Both the position numbers and the translations under genes were made by a program. A stretch of 64,000 nucleotides of DNA from a phage. Shown in pieces: positions 7,131 to 62,859 of this stretch; the first letter of the stretch is position 1; every line of letters starts with the position of its first letter. The stretch lies in NCBI GenBank assembly GCA_026188615.1, contig GCA_026188615.1_4525.1. One strand, written 5' to 3'. The notes under the pieces were generated by a model, which saw only the letters and a program-made list of their open reading frames with translations, was not told the origin of the DNA and did not search any database.

Positions 7131-7594
7131 AAAGAGTCTCTTAATAGGTTTAACACGTCAATAAATTCATCTTCAGTTAGTATTGTATCATCTTTTGTTA
7201 GGTGGCTGGCCATGCTGTGCTTCAAAATTTTTCCTTTAGAGGCTTGTAAGGCATCACGAAACCCCTTGTTTTGGATCGCGGCTTCAAAATATGCATTTGT
7301 GTATAATTCTTTCCACGCTTCAGAGTATCTTGAAAATGGAACTCCTAACCAGAAGAGAGTCCCACGGTCCTGAGCTCTTGCATAAGACCTTCCAGCTTGC
7401 TGTGCAGCCAATCCAGACAACCCAAATATACGTCTTTGTTGTTCAACATTTTTCACCTTACATCCTTGGAGAAATCCTTCAAGACCTCCGAATTGAATAC
7501 CATCCATAACAAAAGGCCATTGAGCAAAGTTACTTAATGCACACGACGGCCATTTGAAATTACTTCTTATTTCTAATTCAGACATCTTTAACAC
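7127..7594 (-). CDS. NADAR/YbiA-like domain protein (30.3 position)
   Basis: LSNFAQWPFVMDGIQF matches recalled YbiA core FSNFAAWPIKVDGKTW; 155 aa. Confidence 0.6.
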   Translation of the reverse strand: MLKMSELEIRSNFKWPSCALSNFAQWPFVMDGIQFGGLEGFLQGCKVKNVEQQRRIFGLSGLAAQQAGRSYARAQDRGTLFWLGVPFSRYSEAWKELYTNAYFEAAIQNKGFRDALQASKGKILKHSMASHLTKDDTILTEDEFIDVLNLLRDSL

Positions 7595-7983: not shown

Positions 7984-8037
7984 ATTTTTCCACTTACTAA
8001 AGAAATCATTATACTCTAATCCGTCCTTGGATGTACA

Positions 8038-9053: not shown

Positions 9054-9127
9054 TTTATTCTCCAGATGTTTAAGTTGTTTGTTGGTACAGGTCTATAATA
9101 ACATAACCTGTACCAAAGTAAACTGTT

Positions 9128-13062: not shown

Positions 13063-13122
13063 TTCTATTTCCTCATTTGTTGGTAGAGTTATAGTATCAC
13101 AACTCCACCATGTTGTAAACCA

Positions 13123-13802: not shown

Positions 13803-14889
<1,087 letters not shown>

Positions 14890-14890
<1 letters not shown>

Positions 14891-15189
14891 TATTTGATTC
14901 CTAAGAAAGCTTCAAGAATACGAATGTTGAGTTCGCGCCGGTCTTTATTAATTTCAGCAACGTTTTTATTAATTGACGTACTTCTAACGTTTGAAGAAAT
15001 AAATTTAATCATATGACTTTTGAGTTGTTGCAAATCCAACCCTTTTTCTTTAGCAGCTTTACGAAGAGCTTTACCTGCTTCATCTAGTGCCTTTGCTGCA
15101 TCTTTGTCATAATCTACAAGTGTCATTCCACGGCAGATATCAATATACTCATCAGACCGTTTGATGTAATTCTCTAGTAATGTTTTCAT
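14890..15189 (-). CDS. hypothetical small protein
   Basis: 99-aa ORF preceded by early promoter 15216..15248. Confidence 0.45.
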
Positions 15190-15215
15190 TTAGATTTCCT
15201 CAATTATCCATAGGA

Positions 15216-15248
15216 GCATTATACTCTGCTCCCGAGAGTTTGTAAACT
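15216..15248 (-). promoter_or_regulatory. T4 early-type promoter (-35 TTTACA, 17-bp spacer, -10 TATAAT) with dyad GGAGCA/TGCTCC flanking the -10
   Basis: Minus strand: TTTACA at 15241..15246, TATAAT at 15218..15223. Confidence 0.55.
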
Positions 15249-15471
15249 ATTTTACTAAAGATTCAATATACTCATGAAGAGCTTTAGTCGCTACTGCCCA
15301 CTTATTCTGATATTCATTTTTCAGATTAGCACGAGACTGAACTAACAAGCGGTCATTAGTCGGAGGCAAAGATTCTAATCGTTGAATCTGGCGTCCATAA
15401 ATCATAGCCGCCATTTCAGATTCATAGATAAGCCCTTTAATGTATTCATGCTGTTCTTTAGTCATTGGCAT
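15247..15471 (-). CDS. hypothetical small protein (pseT.1-like position)
   Basis: 74-aa ORF. Confidence 0.4.
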   Translation of the reverse strand: MPMTKEQHEYIKGLIYESEMAAMIYGRQIQRLESLPPTNDRLLVQSRANLKNEYQNKWAVATKALHEYIESLVK

Positions 15472-16621: not shown

Positions 16622-16654
16622 CATAGTATCACCATCCTTGGTGTTTGTAAACCG
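16622..16654 (-). promoter_or_regulatory. T4 early-type promoter (-35 TTTACA, -10 TACTAT)
   Basis: Minus strand: TTTACA 16647..16652, TACTAT 16624..16629, 17-bp spacer. Confidence 0.5.
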
Positions 16655-17788
<1,134 letters not shown>

Positions 17789-17834
17789 TCAGTTAGTTTT
17801 TTTAAATTGTACCACAATCCTTGTGGTATGTAAA

Positions 17835-19865: not shown

Positions 19866-20540
19866 CGCAAAAGATACATAAAAACGAATAGCTTCTAAGG
19901 CATTAATAACGTGCAAACAGAGGTAAAGAGACTTCATTAAAGCACGTTTAGCTTCGGCTTCTTGTTTAATAGCTCGGTTTAAACGAAAGTCGGCATCAGG
20001 AGATTCTTTAGCTAGTTCTACAAATTCCTTAGCGTTTTCCCAATAACGAGCTTTAACCAGAACATCATCATAATATCGTCCGATAGATTCGGCACGCTTC
20101 ATAATAGCTTCATCTAATACAATCTCATCAAACACCTTCGATGGATCTGTATAAAGATTTCGCATAATATGAGTATATGAACGAGAGTGAATAGTTTCAC
20201 TGAAAGTCCATGTAGCAACCCATGTATCTAATGAAGGGTCTGAAAGCAATGACATAAGTACCGCAGATGGTGCTCTACCTTGGATAGAATCTAATAATGA
20301 TTGATACTTAAGGTTGTTGGTAAAGATGTCCTGTTGGAACTGTGGAAGCTTATTAAACTGGGCCGAATCCAACATCAAGTTTACTTCCTCGGGACGCCAG
20401 AAAAAACTTAGCTGCCGCTCAATGAGTTCTTCAAAAACTTTATGACGCTGAATATCATAACGTGCGAGACCAAGACCAGAACCAAAGAACATTGGTTCGT
20501 TCAAAACATCGACTTGTTGTGTATTAAAAACTGTACTCAT
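19866..20540 (-). CDS. nrdB: ribonucleotide reductase small subunit NrdB, exon 1
   Basis: 225 aa N-terminal part ending ...EAIRFYVSFA as in recalled NrdB just before the intron. Confidence 0.8.
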
Positions 20541-21235
20541 TTAGAATCCTTAAATTTACATTTATCATAATGCCATCTTAGAGCATTGCCTTTATTAACT
20601 TTCTTGCCACAATGCGGACAAGGTGGATATTCAGTACTTTGCTTAGTTCTCAAAGAAATCAAATCACGAGTTTCTTTAGTATGAGGAACATCTCTTGTTG
20701 GAGATATTGTACCATACATAGGATTAAGCACACCTAGTTTAGCTTTTGCTATATTCTTTTTGGCTTCATCTGATTTAGGTTTTCTCATCTTTTTCTTAGT
20801 TTCTTCACTTTTAGCCCTTCCTTTGGTTGCCGCCGATATTTTGTGCTTGGTTTCTTCTGTTAAATGTAGGCCTGTTTTCGCTTTTGAAATTTTCAGTCTT
20901 GTTTCTTCAGAAATGACCATACCTTTGCGAAATTGTGAATTTAACTTCTTTGCATGGGCATATATTTTAGAATGAACTTTATAATGTCGTTTCTTGGTTC
21001 CTTTCATATTGCACATCATGAAAAATGCGAATATAACAGATTTTATCGGATAAATCTTTGATAAAATAGCATGTGCTATAAAATGCTCTCTAGCTGTTAA
21101 TTCAACTAAATTTTCTTTATCATCAGAACCTCCTAAACATCTAGGAACTATATGATGAGTCTCTTTATATTCGGATAAAGGTTCCCGAGCCTTAGCCCGG
21201 GAAATTAGGTCGTTATAGATTTTTTGATAATTCAT
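20537..21235 (-). CDS. mobE: free-standing HNH homing endonuclease, MobE-like
   Basis: 232 aa; HNH motif ETHHIVPRCLGGSDDKENLVELTAREH; repeated basic NUMOD-like K.SEETK..IS.A units; sits between nrdA and nrdB as mobE does in T4. Confidence 0.7.
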   Translation of the reverse strand: MNYQKIYNDLISRAKAREPLSEYKETHHIVPRCLGGSDDKENLVELTAREHFIAHAILSKIYPIKSVIFAFFMMCNMKGTKKRHYKVHSKIYAHAKKLNSQFRKGMVISEETRLKISKAKTGLHLTEETKHKISAATKGRAKSEETKKKMRKPKSDEAKKNIAKAKLGVLNPMYGTISPTRDVPHTKETRDLISLRTKQSTEYPPCPHCGKKVNKGNALRWHYDKCKFKDSK

Positions 21236-23490
21236 TACAATTTACAAGCAGAACAATCTTCAGCTTTAGGTGTTTCTAATTCATAGTCGTCTGTACCAGA
21301 CCCATCACGAGTGTTATGATAGTAGAGGTTTTTTCCGCCAAAGTACCAGAAGTAAAGCAGATCGTCAAGCATTACAGACATTGGCACTTTACCTTTCTCA
21401 AATACTGCAGGGTCATAGTAAGTATTAGCAGAAGCAGATTGGCACACCCATTTCAACATGATAGCAACTTGGGTCAAATAAGGTTTATTACCTTTCTTAG
21501 CAAGTTTCCACGCGTAGTCGTAAAGACTCATGTTATGTTCTATATTAGGAACAACCTGTCGGAAGTTGCCTTCTTTAGATTCTTTAATACTTACTGGACC
21601 GCGTGGGGGCTCAATCCCGTTTGTAGAGTTCGATACTTGACTGCTTGACTCACAAGGCATGAGTGCAGACAACGTTGAGTTACGAATTCCATGTTCTTTG
21701 AGTTCAGCTCGAAGTTCTTCCCAGTCACAGACGTAGTTCGGGGCCGCGATTTGGTCAATCTTTTTATTGTACCAGTCGATAGGTAATTCGCCTCTAGACC
21801 ATTTAGTGTCTGAATAATACTCGCAAGGTCCTTTTTCTTTGGCGAGTTTGATTGAAGCTTTGATAAGGCCATATTGCAATCTCTCAAACAATTCATGAGT
21901 CAAATCGTTAGCATCTTCATATGAAGCAAAGTTAGAAGCTAACCATGCAGCATAGTTCGTCACACCAACGCCGAGGTTTCGACGCTTTTTAGCTTTTAAA
22001 GCTTCTGGAACAGGATAATCTTGATAGTCTAACAGGTTATCAAGTGCACGTACTTGTACTTCAGCAAGTTCATTAATTTTATCTTGGTCTTGCCAATCAA
22101 ATTTATCTAATACAAAAGCAGATAATGTGCATAAACCAATTTCAGCGTCAGGACCATTCACATCATTAGTTGGAATAGCGATTTCACAACATAAGTTACT
22201 CTGACGAATTGGAGCTTTTTCACGAATAAACGGAGTGTAGTTATTCGTGTTATCAACAAACTGTGGATAAATTCGAGCAGTACCAGAACGTTCAGTCATG
22301 AACAATTCAAAGAGTTCTAGTGCTTTGATTCTTTTCTTTCTGATTGTTGGGTCTTTTTCAGCTTTCTCATAAAGCTCACGGAATTTATCTTGATCTTCAA
22401 AGAACGAGTAGTATAGTTCGCCTGACATTTCGTGAGGGCTAAATAAAGTAATATAATCATTTTTACCAAGGCGTTCCATCATAAGGTCATTAATCTGAAT
22501 TCCGTAGTCCATATGTCGAATACGGTTTTCATCCACGCCTTTGTTATTTTTCAGAACTAATAGGTTCTCTACTTCTAAGTGCCACATCGGATAATACGCT
22601 GTAGCAGCACCACCACGAATACCACCTTGAGAACAAGATTTTACTGCAGTTTGGAAATGTTTCCAGAATGGAATAACACCTGTATGTCGAACTTCACCCA
22701 TACCGATCTTAGAACCTTCTGCACGAAGCATGCCAACGTTGATACCGATACCAGCTCGTTTAGAAATATATTCAATAATTGATGCTGAAGTTTTGTTAAT
22801 AGATTTTAACGAATCACCGGCTTCAATAACTACACAACTAGAGAACTGGCGAGTCGGAGTACGAGCACCTGCCATAATTGGGGTTGGCAATGAAACTTGA
22901 TGAGTAGAAACAGCATCATAAAAACGAATAATATGTTTCAAACGGTCATGAGTTTCGTCTTGATGTAAGGCCATACCAATAGCCATGATAGCAAACTGGG
23001 GAGTTTCATAAATCTTACCAGTTGTTTTATCTTTAACTAGGTATTTTTCTTTAAGCTGCATAGCACCAGCATAAGTCAGGTCAAAGTCTCGTTCATGTTT
23101 AATCTGTGAATCGAGATAAATGATTTCTTCTGCTGAATATTGAGACAACAGCTCAGGGTCATATTTGCCTTCATTAACACAGTAAGAAATATGGTCGATA
23201 AAAGCAGGCGGTTCAAACTGCCCATATACATCTTTACGAAGTGCAAACATTAGCCCTTTGGCGGCGACATACTGATAATCGGGTTCTTCGACAGAAATCA
23301 AGTTAGCTGCAACTTTAATACAAATCTTCTGGATATCTTTGGTGCTCATCCCATCGTCAAGATGGGTCTTAATTTCTTCGTACAATTCATATGGGTCGAT
23401 TTGTGTTCCTTCACATTGCCAAGTTAATACTTGAATAATTTTCTGTGCATCAAAATTTTGGGATACCCCACTGCTCTTAGTTACTTGCAT
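21235..23490 (-). CDS. nrdA: ribonucleotide reductase large subunit
   Basis: 751 aa (T4 NrdA 754); class I RNR large-subunit size and position next to nrdB. Confidence 0.9.
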   Translation of the reverse strand: MQVTKSSGVSQNFDAQKIIQVLTWQCEGTQIDPYELYEEIKTHLDDGMSTKDIQKICIKVAANLISVEEPDYQYVAAKGLMFALRKDVYGQFEPPAFIDHISYCVNEGKYDPELLSQYSAEEIIYLDSQIKHERDFDLTYAGAMQLKEKYLVKDKTTGKIYETPQFAIMAIGMALHQDETHDRLKHIIRFYDAVSTHQVSLPTPIMAGARTPTRQFSSCVVIEAGDSLKSINKTSASIIEYISKRAGIGINVGMLRAEGSKIGMGEVRHTGVIPFWKHFQTAVKSCSQGGIRGGAATAYYPMWHLEVENLLVLKNNKGVDENRIRHMDYGIQINDLMMERLGKNDYITLFSPHEMSGELYYSFFEDQDKFRELYEKAEKDPTIRKKRIKALELFELFMTERSGTARIYPQFVDNTNNYTPFIREKAPIRQSNLCCEIAIPTNDVNGPDAEIGLCTLSAFVLDKFDWQDQDKINELAEVQVRALDNLLDYQDYPVPEALKAKKRRNLGVGVTNYAAWLASNFASYEDANDLTHELFERLQYGLIKASIKLAKEKGPCEYYSDTKWSRGELPIDWYNKKIDQIAAPNYVCDWEELRAELKEHGIRNSTLSALMPCESSSQVSNSTNGIEPPRGPVSIKESKEGNFRQVVPNIEHNMSLYDYAWKLAKKGNKPYLTQVAIMLKWVCQSASANTYYDPAVFEKGKVPMSVMLDDLLYFWYFGGKNLYYHNTRDGSGTDDYELETPKAEDCSACKL

Positions 23491-26162: not shown

Positions 26163-26226
26163 TTTATTCTCCGCTTCACTTTTGATTTGATAGGGCTACT
26201 ATAACATAGCCCTATCTTGTTATAAA

Positions 26227-45155: not shown

Positions 45156-45602
45156 TTAGTAACTCTGCAGAATTAATTTGAAATTATCAGCCAGAAGACG
45201 GTTCATTTCAGTGAGTGTTTGATATTCTGATGTATGGTTGCGAGTGAATGCCAGAGCCAATTGACCTTTACCATAACCAGTGGTCAGTGGTTTCATGTTC
45301 TTAGCTGCAACAAAGATTACATCATATTCAATATTGTTAGTGCCCATGGTACGGGCTAGTTGCGAACGGCCTTGACGAATGTGAGAAAGAATTGCATCCA
45401 ACCCTTGTTTAGAACGTTGACGTCCTACAAAGAATCGTGCTGCTACTTGTCGCCAATCAGATGAACCTTTAACGAAGAAGTAAAAACCTTCACGAGAACG
45501 AAACTCTTTAGAAACTTCAGAACCGTATTCGCCATTACGAACTACTGCAACAACTTCACCGCCAACTGCCAGAAGGTCTTTACGAGTTAAATATTTGGAC
45601 AT
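45156..45602 (-). CDS. ndd: nucleoid disruption protein Ndd
   Basis: 148 aa; C-terminal half near-identical to recalled T4 Ndd ([56 protein letters not shown]). Confidence 0.9.
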
Positions 45603-45644
45603 GCTAATTTCCTCAATTGATTAATGTTTTTGTAATCCATGAGA

Positions 45645-45678
45645 GCATTATACTCTGCTCTCAAGAGTTTGTACAATT
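45645..45678 (-). promoter_or_regulatory. T4 early-type promoter upstream of ndd (-35 TTGTAC, 18-bp spacer, -10 TATAAT) with dyad GAGAGCA/TGCTCTC flanking the -10
   Basis: Minus strand TATAAT at 45647..45652; near-duplicate of promoter at 15216..15248. Confidence 0.55.
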
Positions 45679-45879
45679 TTATTCGGCTATATCAGAACGT
45701 TCAAAAAGCTCTTCAACAGTTAAACATTCAGTGTCATCTTCAATAAAGAATCGAGTCCAACACGTTGGGGCGATACAGTTATGAGTTTGTCCGGCGATAG
45801 AAGCTACACGAATAAGCTGCTGACCATTATTCAGAACAAATTTTTCACCAATTTCAACATCTTTAAAAAGCTTAGCCAT
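45679..45879 (-). CDS. hypothetical small protein (ndd.x cluster)
   Basis: 66-aa ORF, Cys-containing (CIAPTCW). Confidence 0.4.
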   Translation of the reverse strand: MAKLFKDVEIGEKFVLNNGQQLIRVASIAGQTHNCIAPTCWTRFFIEDDTECLTVEELFERSDIAE

Positions 45880-46129
45880 TTTGTGTTCCTCATGTTTCAG
45901 TAGGACTACTATACCATAATCCTACTGTGTTGTAAACAATTAAATTACATTAAAATATGTTAAAGCCAACCATGTTCCAGTGAACGAACATGCAATGTAA
46001 AAAACCGTATCACAAAATGTTCTTAGTACAATAAGAAGTGCATTTTTCATAAGTACCTCAACACAATTGAAAATATTATACAAATCATTGGGATACTAAG
46101 CAACCATATTCCTATCCACATTTTAGAGC

Positions 46130-46393: not shown

Positions 46394-46461
46394 GATGTTA
46401 TCCTCTTTTAGATAGGACTACTATATCATAGTCCTACTTAGTTGTAAACACTTTTATGAAA

Positions 46462-47242: not shown

Positions 47243-47262
47243 AATTACCCCTAAAGAAAAAA

Positions 47263-47278
47263 GGGGACCGAAGTCCCC
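47263..47278 (-). terminator. intrinsic terminator hairpin GGGGAC-UUCG-GUCCCC plus U-run downstream of rIIB
   Basis: Perfect 6-bp stem, CGAA loop on plus, A-run 47253..47262. Confidence 0.55.
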
Positions 47279-47283
47279 AATTA

Positions 47284-51874: not shown

Positions 51875-51892
51875 AAGCTCCCGAAGGAGCTT
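51875..51892 (-). terminator. hairpin AAGCUCC-UUCG-GGAGCUU between HNH ORF and glycosyltransferase
   Basis: 7-bp stem with CGAA loop on plus strand; A-rich upstream. Confidence 0.45.
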
Positions 51893-52688
51893 AGGACATC
51901 CAACACATTTTATAACCTTTGCAGGTTCTGTTAGGATTATTTAATGCTTTCAATATATTAGAAGACCCTATATCTAAATACTCCCTTAATTCATAAAGAT
52001 AGTTAAAATCAATAGTTTCACCTGTTTTTACACTTGTGATTCTTATAGGCCTTCTTTCATATTTAGATTTATACAACTCTCTAGTCTTAGCTTTAGTTTC
52101 TTCCGACCTAGGAGTGTATGGTTTAAATCCTTTTGTTTTAAATGTTTCCATTCTTGATTTAGTTATTTTATCCTGGTGTTCTTTTGTTTTTACAGGTGCT
52201 TTTCGCCCATTCTCCCAAGATAACTTGTTGGCCTGTATTATTTTATCTATTGCTTCTTGCGTATGAGTTTTACCATAAAATGGATTTAATTCGCCTATAC
52301 GTTGTGAAGCAATATGTGACATTAATTCTCTTGTTGCTTTAGTATGTTTTTTACCTTTAAATGGATTGCCATTTTTAGCAATCCATTCTTTCATAAATCT
52401 AGAGTGCTCTTTAGAGAATTCTTGTTTAAGCCAATCATAATCTCTAGAATTTCTAGCTCCCATGTAAAAAGCTCTAATAGCCATAAGCATAGAACGGTTC
52501 TTATGAATTTTATAAAGCAATAAATGGGCGATAAAATGCTCTCTAGGGGTCAATTTAACTAGATTTGATTTAGCATTACTCCCGCCCATAGATTTTGGCA
52601 ATATATGATGCGTCTCAGTATAATTAGGAATAATGCTGCGGTTTTTAGCCGCAGCGATAAGTTTATCATAAATTTTACGATAATTCAT
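51891..52688 (-). CDS. free-standing HNH homing endonuclease (MobA-like, intact)
   Basis: ~265 aa from MNYRKIYDKL start overlapping gene 39 stop; HNH motif ETHHILPKSMGGSNAKSNLVKLTPREH; basic repeat-rich C-terminus. Confidence 0.7.
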   Translation of the reverse strand: MNYRKIYDKLIAAAKNRSIIPNYTETHHILPKSMGGSNAKSNLVKLTPREHFIAHLLLYKIHKNRSMLMAIRAFYMGARNSRDYDWLKQEFSKEHSRFMKEWIAKNGNPFKGKKHTKATRELMSHIASQRIGELNPFYGKTHTQEAIDKIIQANKLSWENGRKAPVKTKEHQDKITKSRMETFKTKGFKPYTPRSEETKAKTRELYKSKYERRPIRITSVKTGETIDFNYLYELREYLDIGSSNILKALNNPNRTCKGYKMCWMS

Positions 52689-54508
52689 TATCCTAGCATC
52701 CAATCTTTACGGAGTTCAGGGTCGTTACCCATGAGCATTTCAAATAGTTCTTTCCAATTTTCAGGAAGTTTAACTACGTCGTACACAGGGTTTTGAATCA
52801 TTTCTTTATATTCATCTCGCTGAAGTGAGCCTAATCCCTTGATGTATCGAATACTATGCTTAGGAAGTGTATCTTTAGCTTCTTCATACTCAGCTACAGT
52901 ATAAAACCATTTTTGAGTTTTGCCAATTTGTGCAATAATTACAGGCGTTTTAACAAAGCGAATACGTCCTTGTTCAAACAATTCAGGCCAATTACTAAAG
53001 AAAGCAAGCAAAGCCGGATAGATACTTCCAAGACCGTCATGATCGGCATCGGTCATAATTGCAATATTACGATAGTTCGTATTCTCTGCCTTTTCACCAA
53101 GAATAAGACCTGTGATAGCACAGATATCAAAGAGCTCTTTGTTCTTCATCATATCAGCATATGACATACCCCAGCTATTCATCACCTTACCACGTAATGG
53201 GAATCCGCCGTGTAGTTCACGGTCACGAACATCAATGAGATAACCAATTGCCGAATCACCTTCTGTTAAAAACAATGTCGTATCTGCATCTTTACCACAT
53301 TGGTTAGCTTTAATATGCTTATGAACCTTAGCTTTAGTTGCCTTTTTAGCTGCTTTAGTTTCTGCAGCCTTTTCTGCTGCCAATTTACGAGCTAATGCTG
53401 CTTCAACAATAGGCATAATCAAGGCTTCGTTTTTAAGAAGTGCCTGAGCAATTTTCTTAGCATCTAATTGGATATGATTACGAATATCACCATACGTTGA
53501 CGTTAAACGTTCTTTAGTCTGAGAATCAAAACGCATGTTGCTCATGTCTCTAATAAACATCAACATTGTGAGGCATTCTTTAACACGAGCTTTAGTGACT
53601 TCAATACCCTTATATTTCTTTTTAATACCCGGTAAAAGATGTTCGCAGATATCATCCATTACACATTCAACATGATGACCACCATTTTTAGTATGGATGT
53701 TATTCACATAAGTTAAATGACGGAAGCCATCTGGTGATGTTGTGAATGCTATAGAGACTTTATCATTTTCTTGAATGATGTTATCTTCACCAAATTGTTT
53801 AGCAAATCGTTTAAAATTACCATCAACCTTTTTACCATTAAATGTGAACTTGATATCAGGATAAACGACTGCCAATGTTTGAAGTCGGTCTAAAGTAATA
53901 TCTAAATAAATTTGAGATAAATTATGCTCTTCAAATGAAGAGAAATCAGGAGTGAAGATTACTTTAGTGCCTTTACCTTTAGATTTCTTAGAAGACCATG
54001 ATTTGTTTTCCATTCCGTTTGAACAGTTAACAGTGATTTCATTTTCGCCATCTGACGTGATGCCTGTAAACAAAGTAGAGAAGATATTAGTTAAACTACT
54101 CCCGACGCCGTTCATACCGCCAGTCTTGCGTTCAGAATCATCACCAAAGTTACCACCAGCCTTTGGAATAGTCCAGGCTGCTACAGGCCCAGGAATTTGT
54201 TCACCTGTTTGGTCAGTAACTAAACCTTGAGGAATACCACGTCCGTTATCTTCCACCGAAACTTGATTATTTTTAATTTGCACATCAATTTTATTTGCAA
54301 ACTTAAATGATGTACGAATAGCTTCATCAACCGAGTTGTCAATAATCTCATCGATTAATTTAACCAGACCAGGAACATATTCAACTTGTTGATATTTACC
54401 AAACAAAAAACGCTCATGGGCTTCTTTAGCAGAAGAACCAATATACATGCCACTACGTTTCTTAATATGTTCTACATCTGACAGTACCTTAATTTCATTT
54501 TTAATCAT
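52688..54508 (-). CDS. 39: DNA topoisomerase II large subunit gp39 (GyrB-like), unsplit form
   Basis: 606 aa single ORF; GHKL ATPase-like N-terminus (..DNGRGIP..); no separate gene 60. Confidence 0.85.
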   Translation of the reverse strand: MIKNEIKVLSDVEHIKKRSGMYIGSSAKEAHERFLFGKYQQVEYVPGLVKLIDEIIDNSVDEAIRTSFKFANKIDVQIKNNQVSVEDNGRGIPQGLVTDQTGEQIPGPVAAWTIPKAGGNFGDDSERKTGGMNGVGSSLTNIFSTLFTGITSDGENEITVNCSNGMENKSWSSKKSKGKGTKVIFTPDFSSFEEHNLSQIYLDITLDRLQTLAVVYPDIKFTFNGKKVDGNFKRFAKQFGEDNIIQENDKVSIAFTTSPDGFRHLTYVNNIHTKNGGHHVECVMDDICEHLLPGIKKKYKGIEVTKARVKECLTMLMFIRDMSNMRFDSQTKERLTSTYGDIRNHIQLDAKKIAQALLKNEALIMPIVEAALARKLAAEKAAETKAAKKATKAKVHKHIKANQCGKDADTTLFLTEGDSAIGYLIDVRDRELHGGFPLRGKVMNSWGMSYADMMKNKELFDICAITGLILGEKAENTNYRNIAIMTDADHDGLGSIYPALLAFFSNWPELFEQGRIRFVKTPVIIAQIGKTQKWFYTVAEYEEAKDTLPKHSIRYIKGLGSLQRDEYKEMIQNPVYDVVKLPENWKELFEMLMGNDPELRKDWMLG

Positions 54509-56401: not shown

Positions 56402-56460
56402 ATTATTCTCCTCCGGTTGATATGGTTATAATATCAAAACCAGAGGAGAAGTAAACAACT

Positions 56461-57375: not shown

Positions 57376-57436
57376 AATTTTCTCTCTTTGTTTAAGTTGA
57401 ATTCATTATACTCCACCCGTCCTTGGATGTACAACA

Positions 57437-57931: not shown

Positions 57932-57996
57932 AATGTTTTCCTGTTTGGTTAAGATAGAAAGATTATACTCCAACCATCCTTGGTTGTAAACTGGTT

Positions 57997-62670: not shown

Positions 62671-62859
62671 TCATTTCCAAGGACTCCATGGCGGAGGGTC
62701 GTCATAATAAGAGGCAAGGTCTTTCAGGACATCTAATGGTAAACTAAAGCCGTGTCGTTGTATAATACTATCTAGTTCATCAACAAGTTCACTACGATGC
62801 ACTTTAGGAGCCTCAACTTCAGGCTCGTCAAACATACTCATAAGGTCCATATTATTCAC
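62671..62859 (-). CDS. hypothetical small protein
   Basis: 62-aa ORF. Confidence 0.35.
   Translation of the reverse strand: MNNMDLMSMFDEPEVEAPKVHRSELVDELDSIIQRHGFSLPLDVLKDLASYYDDPPPWSPWK

Follow-up and report, generated by a model that had tools for sequence, protein, structure and literature searches.

Two near-duplicate promoters of a Mosigvirus are probably copies of a dispersed PeSL-type early-promoter cassette carrying a sense-strand hairpin

Two promoters on the minus strand of a 64,000-nt stretch of phage DNA (GenBank assembly GCA_026188615.1, contig GCA_026188615.1_4525.1; the whole stretch is called the window) are probably copies of one dispersed family of composite early-promoter cassettes of the PeSL type, in which a hairpin around the -10 hexamer would act in read-through RNA and the cassette as a whole would serve as a homology patch. 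The evidence comes from the anatomy of the two sites, from the distribution of the cassette among T-even phages, from compensatory changes and strand-specific wobbles in the stem, and from the folding of early promoters in general.

The window was assigned to Mosigvirus (T4-like, Tevenvirinae), with early genes carried on the minus strand. When the 3-kb surroundings of the two sites were compared with complete Mosigvirus genomes, identity reached 99.8% for site 1 (vB_EcoM_G53) and about 98% for site 2. Single-protein searches of IMG/VR returned three close relatives with Ndd and one with the 99-aa ORF product, and a scan of the whole 64-kb window with Rfam gave no family at threshold. Site 1 is in the pseT/alc region, between a pseT.1 homologue (15247-15471) and an ORF of 99 aa just upstream of pseT (14890-15189, minus strand; SD GAGG at 15201-15198, ATG at 15189-15187), for which a T4 homologue is absent. 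Site 2 is in the ndd/denB region, between an ndd.1 homologue (45679-45879) and ndd, the gene for the nucleoid disruption protein (45156-45602, minus strand; SD GAGGAA at 45614-45609, ATG at 45602). Judged from sequence and T4 biology, site 1 would drive the 99-aa ORF and site 2 would drive ndd, both being putative promoters. They are presumed to be early from their sequence class and their homology with a promoter-like cassette upstream of T4 motB.

The site 1 cassette (15190..15249, minus strand) occupies the whole intergenic gap: it opens with the TAG that ends the pseT.1 homologue (15249-15247) and closes immediately ahead of the 99-aa ORF's ATG. On the minus strand it reads TTTACA (15246-15241)-aactctcGGGAGCAgag-TATAAT (15223-15218)-GCTCCTatggat. 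The -35 hexamer TTTACA (15241..15246) is directly 3′ of the upstream stop codon, is directly preceded by TTAGTAAAATAG, which corresponds to the upstream stretch of PeSLs, and is separated by a 17-bp spacer from the -10 hexamer TATAAT (15218..15223). The dyad GGAGCA/TGCTCC is lengthened to a stem of 7 by an added G.T pair, giving a 5′ arm G-GGAGCA (15227..15233, promoter positions about -22 to -16), a loop GAGTATAA (15219-15226) and a 3′ arm TGCTCC-T in the discriminator (15212..15218, positions -7 to -1). Transcription is predicted to start at the A at 15211, 7 nt past the -10 hexamer. The sense RNA had a minimum free energy of -12.2 kcal/mol (z -1.9), the SD begins 11 nt downstream of the stem, and the 3′ arm contains neither an SD nor a start codon.

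Site 2 (45603..45681, minus strand) starts at the TAA that terminates the ndd.1 homologue (45681-45679) and stops right before the ndd ATG, with the minus-strand sequence TGTACA (45675-45670)-aactctTGAGAGCAgag-TATAAT (45652-45647)-GCTCTCAtggat. Here, too, a 17-bp spacer separates the -35 hexamer TGTACA (45670..45675), directly preceded by the PeSL-like upstream stretch GAATAAAAT, from the -10 hexamer TATAAT (45647..45652). An 8-bp stem is formed by TGAGAGCA (45656..45663) and TGCTCTCA (45640..45647) around the same loop as in site 1, GAGTATAA (45648-45655), and the sense RNA folded with a minimum free energy of -13.9 kcal/mol (z -3.9). The SD begins 26 nt downstream of the stem and, as in site 1, the 3′ arm is free of SD and start codon.

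The sequence-only reading had described near-duplicate promoters, about 90% identical, with an inverted repeat around the -10 hexamer of each. Coordinates and sequences proved correct, and both sites are near-consensus, sigma-70 early-type promoters with 17-bp spacers (hexamer match to consensus 12/12 for site 1 and 11/12 for site 2, when either TTTACA or TTGACA was accepted at -35). Identity was about 90% over a 40-nt core and 85% over 46 nt (15206-15251 against 45635-45680), and the dyads are real, with 7 and 8 bp. At both sites the 3′ arm starts with the final T of TATAAT. Where the two stems differ, the changes compensate each other: one pair is G-C in one stem and A-T in the other, and the next is G.T against G-C. 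A MotA box or extended -10 (TGn) was not seen in the cassette family by sequence inspection. The 14-mer GCAGAGTATAATGC, common to both sites, has no further exact copy in the window; when up to 2 mismatches were allowed, 3 matches were obtained against 0.45 expected, a number reached in 0 of 100 shuffles.

The two sites make up D3, one of the three largest families of dispersed direct repeats in the window, and all three of these are promoter cassettes. Another repeat, D4 (21071-21169 and 52524-52622), is the common 5′ coding region, 99 nt long and 75% identical, of two paralogous genes for free-standing HNH-type homing-endonuclease-like proteins with the motif ETHHI[VL]P (20537-21235 and 51891-52703, minus strand). 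The first is directly downstream of a large ribonucleotide-reductase-like ORF (21235-23490), and the second is downstream of a gyrase B/topoisomerase-like ORF (52688-54508).

The cassette is not restricted to these two sites, and the refuting condition set by the sequence-only reading, a pattern confined to two sites with a dyad not conserved in related phages, did not hold. A 48-nt cassette query was matched in 730 phage records at 1256 places, with 3-4 copies per Mosigvirus genome and one copy each in T4 and T6, both at about 90% identity and near 6.5-7.2 kb. The promoter catalogue of moskry, a complete Mosigvirus genome, contains about 45 early promoter cassettes, of which 4 are copies of this family; 2 of the 4 lie outside the window, and one of these has the arms GAGAGA/TCTCTC, a compensatory change from C-G to A-T. 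The T4 copy, upstream of motB (NC_000866, about 7164-7220, minus strand), resembles the window copies in sequence and geometry (TTTACAAACTCT-TGGGACCAG-AGTATAAT-GGTCCCG), and its stem of 6-8 bp (GGGACC/GGTCCC) is compensatory relative to theirs; it differs in preceding motB. The motB region of Mosigvirus carries promoters of other families. Across T-even genomes the cassette precedes at least seven unrelated genes (motB, ndd, and ORFs of 99, 109, 114, 160 and 197 aa), and the genes downstream of family copies are mostly small hypothetical ORFs.

For analysis of the stem, cassettes were retrieved by a scan of IMG/VR in which only the flanks were fixed (ACAAACTCT-N9-AGTATAAT) to avoid arm bias, and were combined with those of the window, moskry and T4 into a set of 24 distinct T-even cassettes. 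On the sense strand, 97.9% of the cells of the 8-bp helix were paired, with the two outer pairs accounting for most wobbles. Given this clustering and the relatedness of the copies, the independent events are fewer than the cell counts suggest. Both sides had changed at five of the eight pairs, one of them occupied by GC, CG and UA and others by GC and AU, and the stems of the family included GAGAGC, GGGAGC, GGGACC, GGGGTC and GAGAGA, each with a matching partner. The observed pairing and covariation score were reached in 0 of 500 shuffles, pairing was 35-54% in a control in which the partner was slid by 1-3 columns, and the same helix was recovered independently by RNAalifold. The suggestion that the dyad over the -10 is conserved thus holds for related phages, in which compensatory changes have kept it.

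Pairing was asymmetric between the strands. In the antisense alignment only 87.0% of cells were paired, because 23 G.U cells of the sense strand become A.C mismatches. Wobbles restricted to one strand are the signature of a folded single strand rather than of a sequence-specific duplex site. These patterns point to selection for pairing on a single-stranded sense hairpin, not to a protein operator, and the selected hairpin is most likely that of read-through RNA.

The same data bear on the earlier proposal of an operator for a dimeric regulator, whereby a phage or host protein would bind the palindrome over the -10 and repress the promoter, for example during early-promoter shut-off. The dyad overlaps the -10 and the discriminator, a classic repressor position, the two window copies have nearly equal arms, and the shut-off of T4 early promoters has been described as incompletely understood in mechanism (PMC3014915). 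Within the family, however, the arm sequence drifts, always with a matching partner, and no half-site is conserved; the genome's other early promoters carry arms unrelated to these; the 23 sense G.U cells break the palindrome in duplex DNA; the loop sequence is dictated by the -10; and no candidate regulator was identified. A palindromic operator was rejected on the grounds of covariation, arm diversity and strand asymmetry, and we consider it very unlikely. A RegB site (GGAG) was also rejected as the conserved feature: GGAG is present in an arm of site 1 and absent from site 2 and many family members.

An analogous hairpin, with other stem sequences, was found at about half of the early promoters of this phage and of T4. 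Segments of 47 nt, from the spacer to about +17 and starting just after the -35 hexamer, were folded for 43 early promoters of moskry and 35 of T4, giving mean z of -2.6 and -2.7. A z below -2 was obtained for 56% of these promoters in moskry and 43% in T4, against 13% and 11% of other gene-upstream windows and 19% and 20% of late-promoter-like sites, respectively. Sense segments folded better than antisense across the early promoters (Wilcoxon p 3e-4 for moskry, 7e-4 for T4). The 5′ edge of every structure in the moskry and T4 early promoters fell at -29 to -22.

Of 23 candidate early promoters in the window, 11 had z below -2, and in nine the -10 was within the hairpin. The stems are mutually unrelated (TAGGACTA, GATAGGGCTA, TTGGTACAGGT, TGGTGGAGTTGTG and others), and the arms around the -10 in one genome are fully different between promoter families (GAGAGCA, TAGGACTA, GGTACAGGT and others). 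The -10 lies in the loop of minus-strand promoters at 46420..46448 (stem TAGGACTA/TAGTCCTA, z -4.7), 45908..45936 (stem CAGTAGGATTA/TAGTCCTACTG with a U.G pair, z -5.2) and 26198..26226 (stem GATAGGGCTA/TAGCCCTATC, compensatory relative to that at 46448, z -7.0). It lies within the hairpin at 13091..13119 (minus strand; 13-bp stem TGGTGGAGTTGTG/TATAACTCTACCA, z -4.9) and at 9095..9122 (minus strand; 11-bp stem TTGGTACAGGT/ACCTGTACCAA), the latter resembling a promoter-like site with a similar stem ahead of T4 gene 30.7 (T4 129917). The position of the hairpin varies by promoter family: inside the spacer, around the -10, or from the spacer to the SD.

Two further arrangements were observed. In a sister class, the spacer right after the -35 (e.g., TCTCCTCTGGTT) pairs over 12-14 bp with the downstream SD region (AACCGGAGGAGA); members are at 56407-56449 in the window (minus strand, promoter 56455), at 71213, 29960, 16701 and 67583 in moskry, and at 62796 (regB), 136335 (alc), 123092, 65412, 53942 and 166806 in T4. 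By this pairing the SD would be sequestered in read-through transcripts only and not in those from the promoter itself, which would be the logic of e and soc at early promoters. In another family, a small hairpin lies wholly inside the spacer (e.g., ACCAaggaTGGT, CCACAaggatTGTGG) with a common CAAGGA loop motif (57962-57990, 57405-57433, 17806-17834, 16623-16651 and 8008-8037), corresponding to the PeSL subclass with the stem-loop between -35 and -10.

An intergenic hairpin directly after a stop codon could be a canonical intrinsic terminator of upstream transcription, the literal promoter-terminator reading of a PeSL. In RB49, the G/C-rich stem-loop of PeSL211/210 cut lacZ read-through as strongly as rrnB T1 (PMC2839356), and termination is not known to have been assayed for any other PeSL. 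The T-even hairpins, however, lack a U-tract: among the structured early promoters of moskry and T4, 38 in total, each has 0-3 T in the 8 nt that follow its structure, and the sequences after the stems of the two sites are ATGGATAA and TGGATTAC. A terminator scan of the window made no call at site 1 or site 2, the stems are only moderately stable (-12 to -14 kcal/mol), and canonical terminators with a GC stem and a T-run exist elsewhere in the same genome. Terminator-like hairpins of this kind, with a G/C stem and T-run (e.g., GGGAGACgttgTCTCCC-TTTTTT), were seen in the window at 1819-1848 and 47254-47283 (both read on the minus strand) and at 18267-18254, and contrast with the promoter hairpins in having the U-tract. 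The canonical intrinsic terminator was rejected for its missing U-tract and is judged quite improbable.

Templated mutation in quasi-palindromes is known in T4. Recent duplication combined with such correction could by itself maintain both the likeness of the copies and the pairing of a functionless hairpin, and the copies are clearly of common ancestry. Templated correction would yield perfect Watson-Crick arms, however, not strand-specific wobbles. Moreover, structure is about 4-fold commoner at early promoters than in other upstream regions and at late-promoter-like sites, and promoter families that are unrelated to one another have hairpins, in Mosigvirus as well as in T4. The structured region always starts upstream of the predicted start, although the segment chosen for folding began just after the -35. 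We regard a functionless hairpin as extremely improbable.

Selected pairing would also be expected of a hairpin or cruciform at the DNA level, in supercoiled or single-stranded DNA, that either modulates promoter opening or is recognised by a structure-specific recombination protein or nuclease (endonuclease VII, for example), its shape turning the cassette into a recombination hot spot. A sense hairpin in ssDNA would fit the strand asymmetry, as G.T is the least destabilising DNA mismatch, and the authors of the PeSL work placed one minicircle crossover in the loop and speculated on a stem-binding recombination protein (PMC2839356). A cruciform, on the other hand, needs both strands to fold, and its antisense arm would have A.C mismatches in 12% of cells; stems of only 7-8 bp with 8-nt loops are unfavourable for extrusion, which would destroy the geometry of the 17-bp spacer. 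The variation of hairpin position among promoter families is more readily expected of an RNA element than of a device for opening the promoter. A DNA-level structure is judged unlikely, and a hairpin acting in read-through RNA is the preferred reading.

Each cassette takes up all the space between two early genes of the same orientation, in the order stop codon, A-rich stretch, T[T/G]TACA, 17-bp spacer, TATAAT, short leader, SD and ATG. The spacer at about -22 to -15 pairs with the discriminator (-7 to -1/+1) in a hairpin of 7-8 bp, so that the -10 lies in the loop. Both arms are upstream of, or end at, the predicted start and, with 5′ edges at -29 to -22, the hairpin can never be complete in RNA from its own promoter; it would be carried only by RNA reading through from upstream promoters, or by sense-strand ssDNA. 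In read-through RNA it may be an attenuator or pause site, a 3′-end or processing barrier that insulates the cistrons, or an element that tunes how the downstream ORF is translated, and this molecular role is the weakest step of the mechanism. The conserved cassette of about 45 nt may in addition be a homology patch by which T4-type recombination moves modules of promoter and ORF, and this role would explain near-identical copies 30 kb apart.

A more tentative reading, which we hold as possible but doubtful, is that the hairpins are non-terminator RNA tags of read-through transcripts, by which early mRNA is treated according to transcript origin, with the cassettes also acting as recombination linkers. 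If true, such tags would form a genome-wide layer of control in which translation, RNase processing or decay depends on the promoter at which a transcript started. The idea would extend to early genes the few cases known from late promoters (e, soc, 49 and I-TevI), and the family studied here would be a variant with the hairpin off the SD, next to sister families in which the spacer pairs directly with the SD.

Comparison with T4 bears on the recombination-linker part of the preferred reading. In T4, pseT.1 abuts pseT with no gap; the window has a 553-bp insertion there (14702..15254, minus strand), a segment absent from T4 that comprises the cassette, the 99-aa ORF and a 63-aa ORF, neither ORF having a T4 homologue. 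Site 1 is thus at the head of a module of promoter and ORFans inserted relative to T4. At ndd, the cassette is present in Mosigvirus and absent in T4, where no sigma-70 promoter was found upstream of ndd. Indel boundaries, a feature of PeSLs, were accordingly seen in two comparisons with T4 (pseT.1/pseT and ndd). The gap between ndd.1 and ndd of T4 (NC_000866, about 166041-166100, minus strand) contains a GGCCG-N11-CGGCC hairpin at the position of the Mosigvirus cassette. Copies at different loci were 84.8% identical within a genome and 81.2% identical between genomes, a weak signal from a crude grouping. The sequence-only reading had offered a recombination-prone repeat as its second possibility; the insertion relative to T4 and the seven or more downstream genes are consistent with a recombination-linker role of the cassette and stop short of proof.

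These results place two look-alike promoters in a described class and account for the recurrence of blocks of about 45 nt tens of kb apart; neither a new regulator nor a new kind of element is revealed. In annotation, the cassettes mark early transcription units and likely the boundaries of modules in the hyperplastic regions of therapeutic and model coliphages. What is added is that stem pairing appears to be selected on the sense strand, outside the promoter's own transcript and without a U-tract. Taken together, the missing U-tract, the exclusion from the own transcript and the selection on the sense strand make the label "terminator" questionable for T-even phages. A search of the literature on T4 transcript 3′-end maps and on "dyad symmetry" at T4 early promoters yielded nothing usable, and an older description of these dyads in T4 may exist.

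Among known systems, operators of the LexA, lambda cI/Cro and LacI types likewise have a dyad centred at or close to a strong promoter's -10, but they keep the sequence of the half-site, whereas here only pairing is kept and the arms are unrelated within one genome. Rho-independent terminators likewise place a stem-loop between genes, close behind a stop codon; the sites studied here differ in their 8-nt loop, moderate stability and missing U-tract. The leader hairpins of T4 e, soc, 49 and I-TevI (PMC3014915) also have the promoter inside the hairpin, so that folding is seen in long read-through transcripts, while those begun at the internal promoter are without the 5′ arm. In those genes the internal promoter is late and the 3′ arm holds the SD or AUG. 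At the two sites the SD begins 11-26 nt past the stem and stays free. The e/soc feature, with the spacer paired with the SD, is seen at other early promoters in the window (e.g., 56407-56449), in moskry and in T4.

The closest likeness is to the PeSLs, known from RB49 and phi1 as sigma-70-like early promoters combined with an A/T-rich upstream region, a stem-loop, an SD and an ATG (Arbiol 2010, PMC2839356), and later described in PST/T4 and nt-1/KVP40 as well, one exchange lying in the ndd.4/ndd.5 region of T4 (Comeau 2014, PMC4122927). Minicircles arise by recombination between PeSLs, with one crossover placed in the loop, and a stem-binding recombination protein is a speculation of the authors (PMC2839356); a terminator or attenuator role is reported, and a recombination-linker role is proposed and partly demonstrated (PMC2839356, PMC4122927). 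There is also a subclass in which the stem-loop is between -35 and -10 or overlaps the -10, with G-T pairs noted (PMC2839356). Bracketing of the -10 is documented there for RB49/phi1 and not explicitly for T-evens, the stem-loops of T4 and PST being described as "just upstream" of the promoter (PMC4122927). Covariation, the sense-strand asymmetry and exclusion from the own transcript are reported here and were not found in the accessible parts of PMC2839356 and PMC4122927.

The stems of the present sites differ from those of the published PeSLs in being of mixed sequence and 7-8 bp rather than polyG/polyC, and the -35 is of the T4 type, TTTACA. The stems have no U-tract, which makes terminator activity doubtful, and the terminator half is not present in canonical form. 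The sites share the following with PeSLs: an early sigma-70-type promoter, an A/T-rich upstream stretch, a stem-loop, an SD and an ATG fill the intergenic gap, there are many repeats per genome, near small ORFans and at indels between related phages, and the stem-loop lies over the -10 with G-T pairs, as in the subclass. Every sequence-level feature by which PeSLs are recognized is found at both sites, which, at the level of sequence, match PeSL-type early promoter cassettes, including the subclass in which the stem-loop overlaps the -10.
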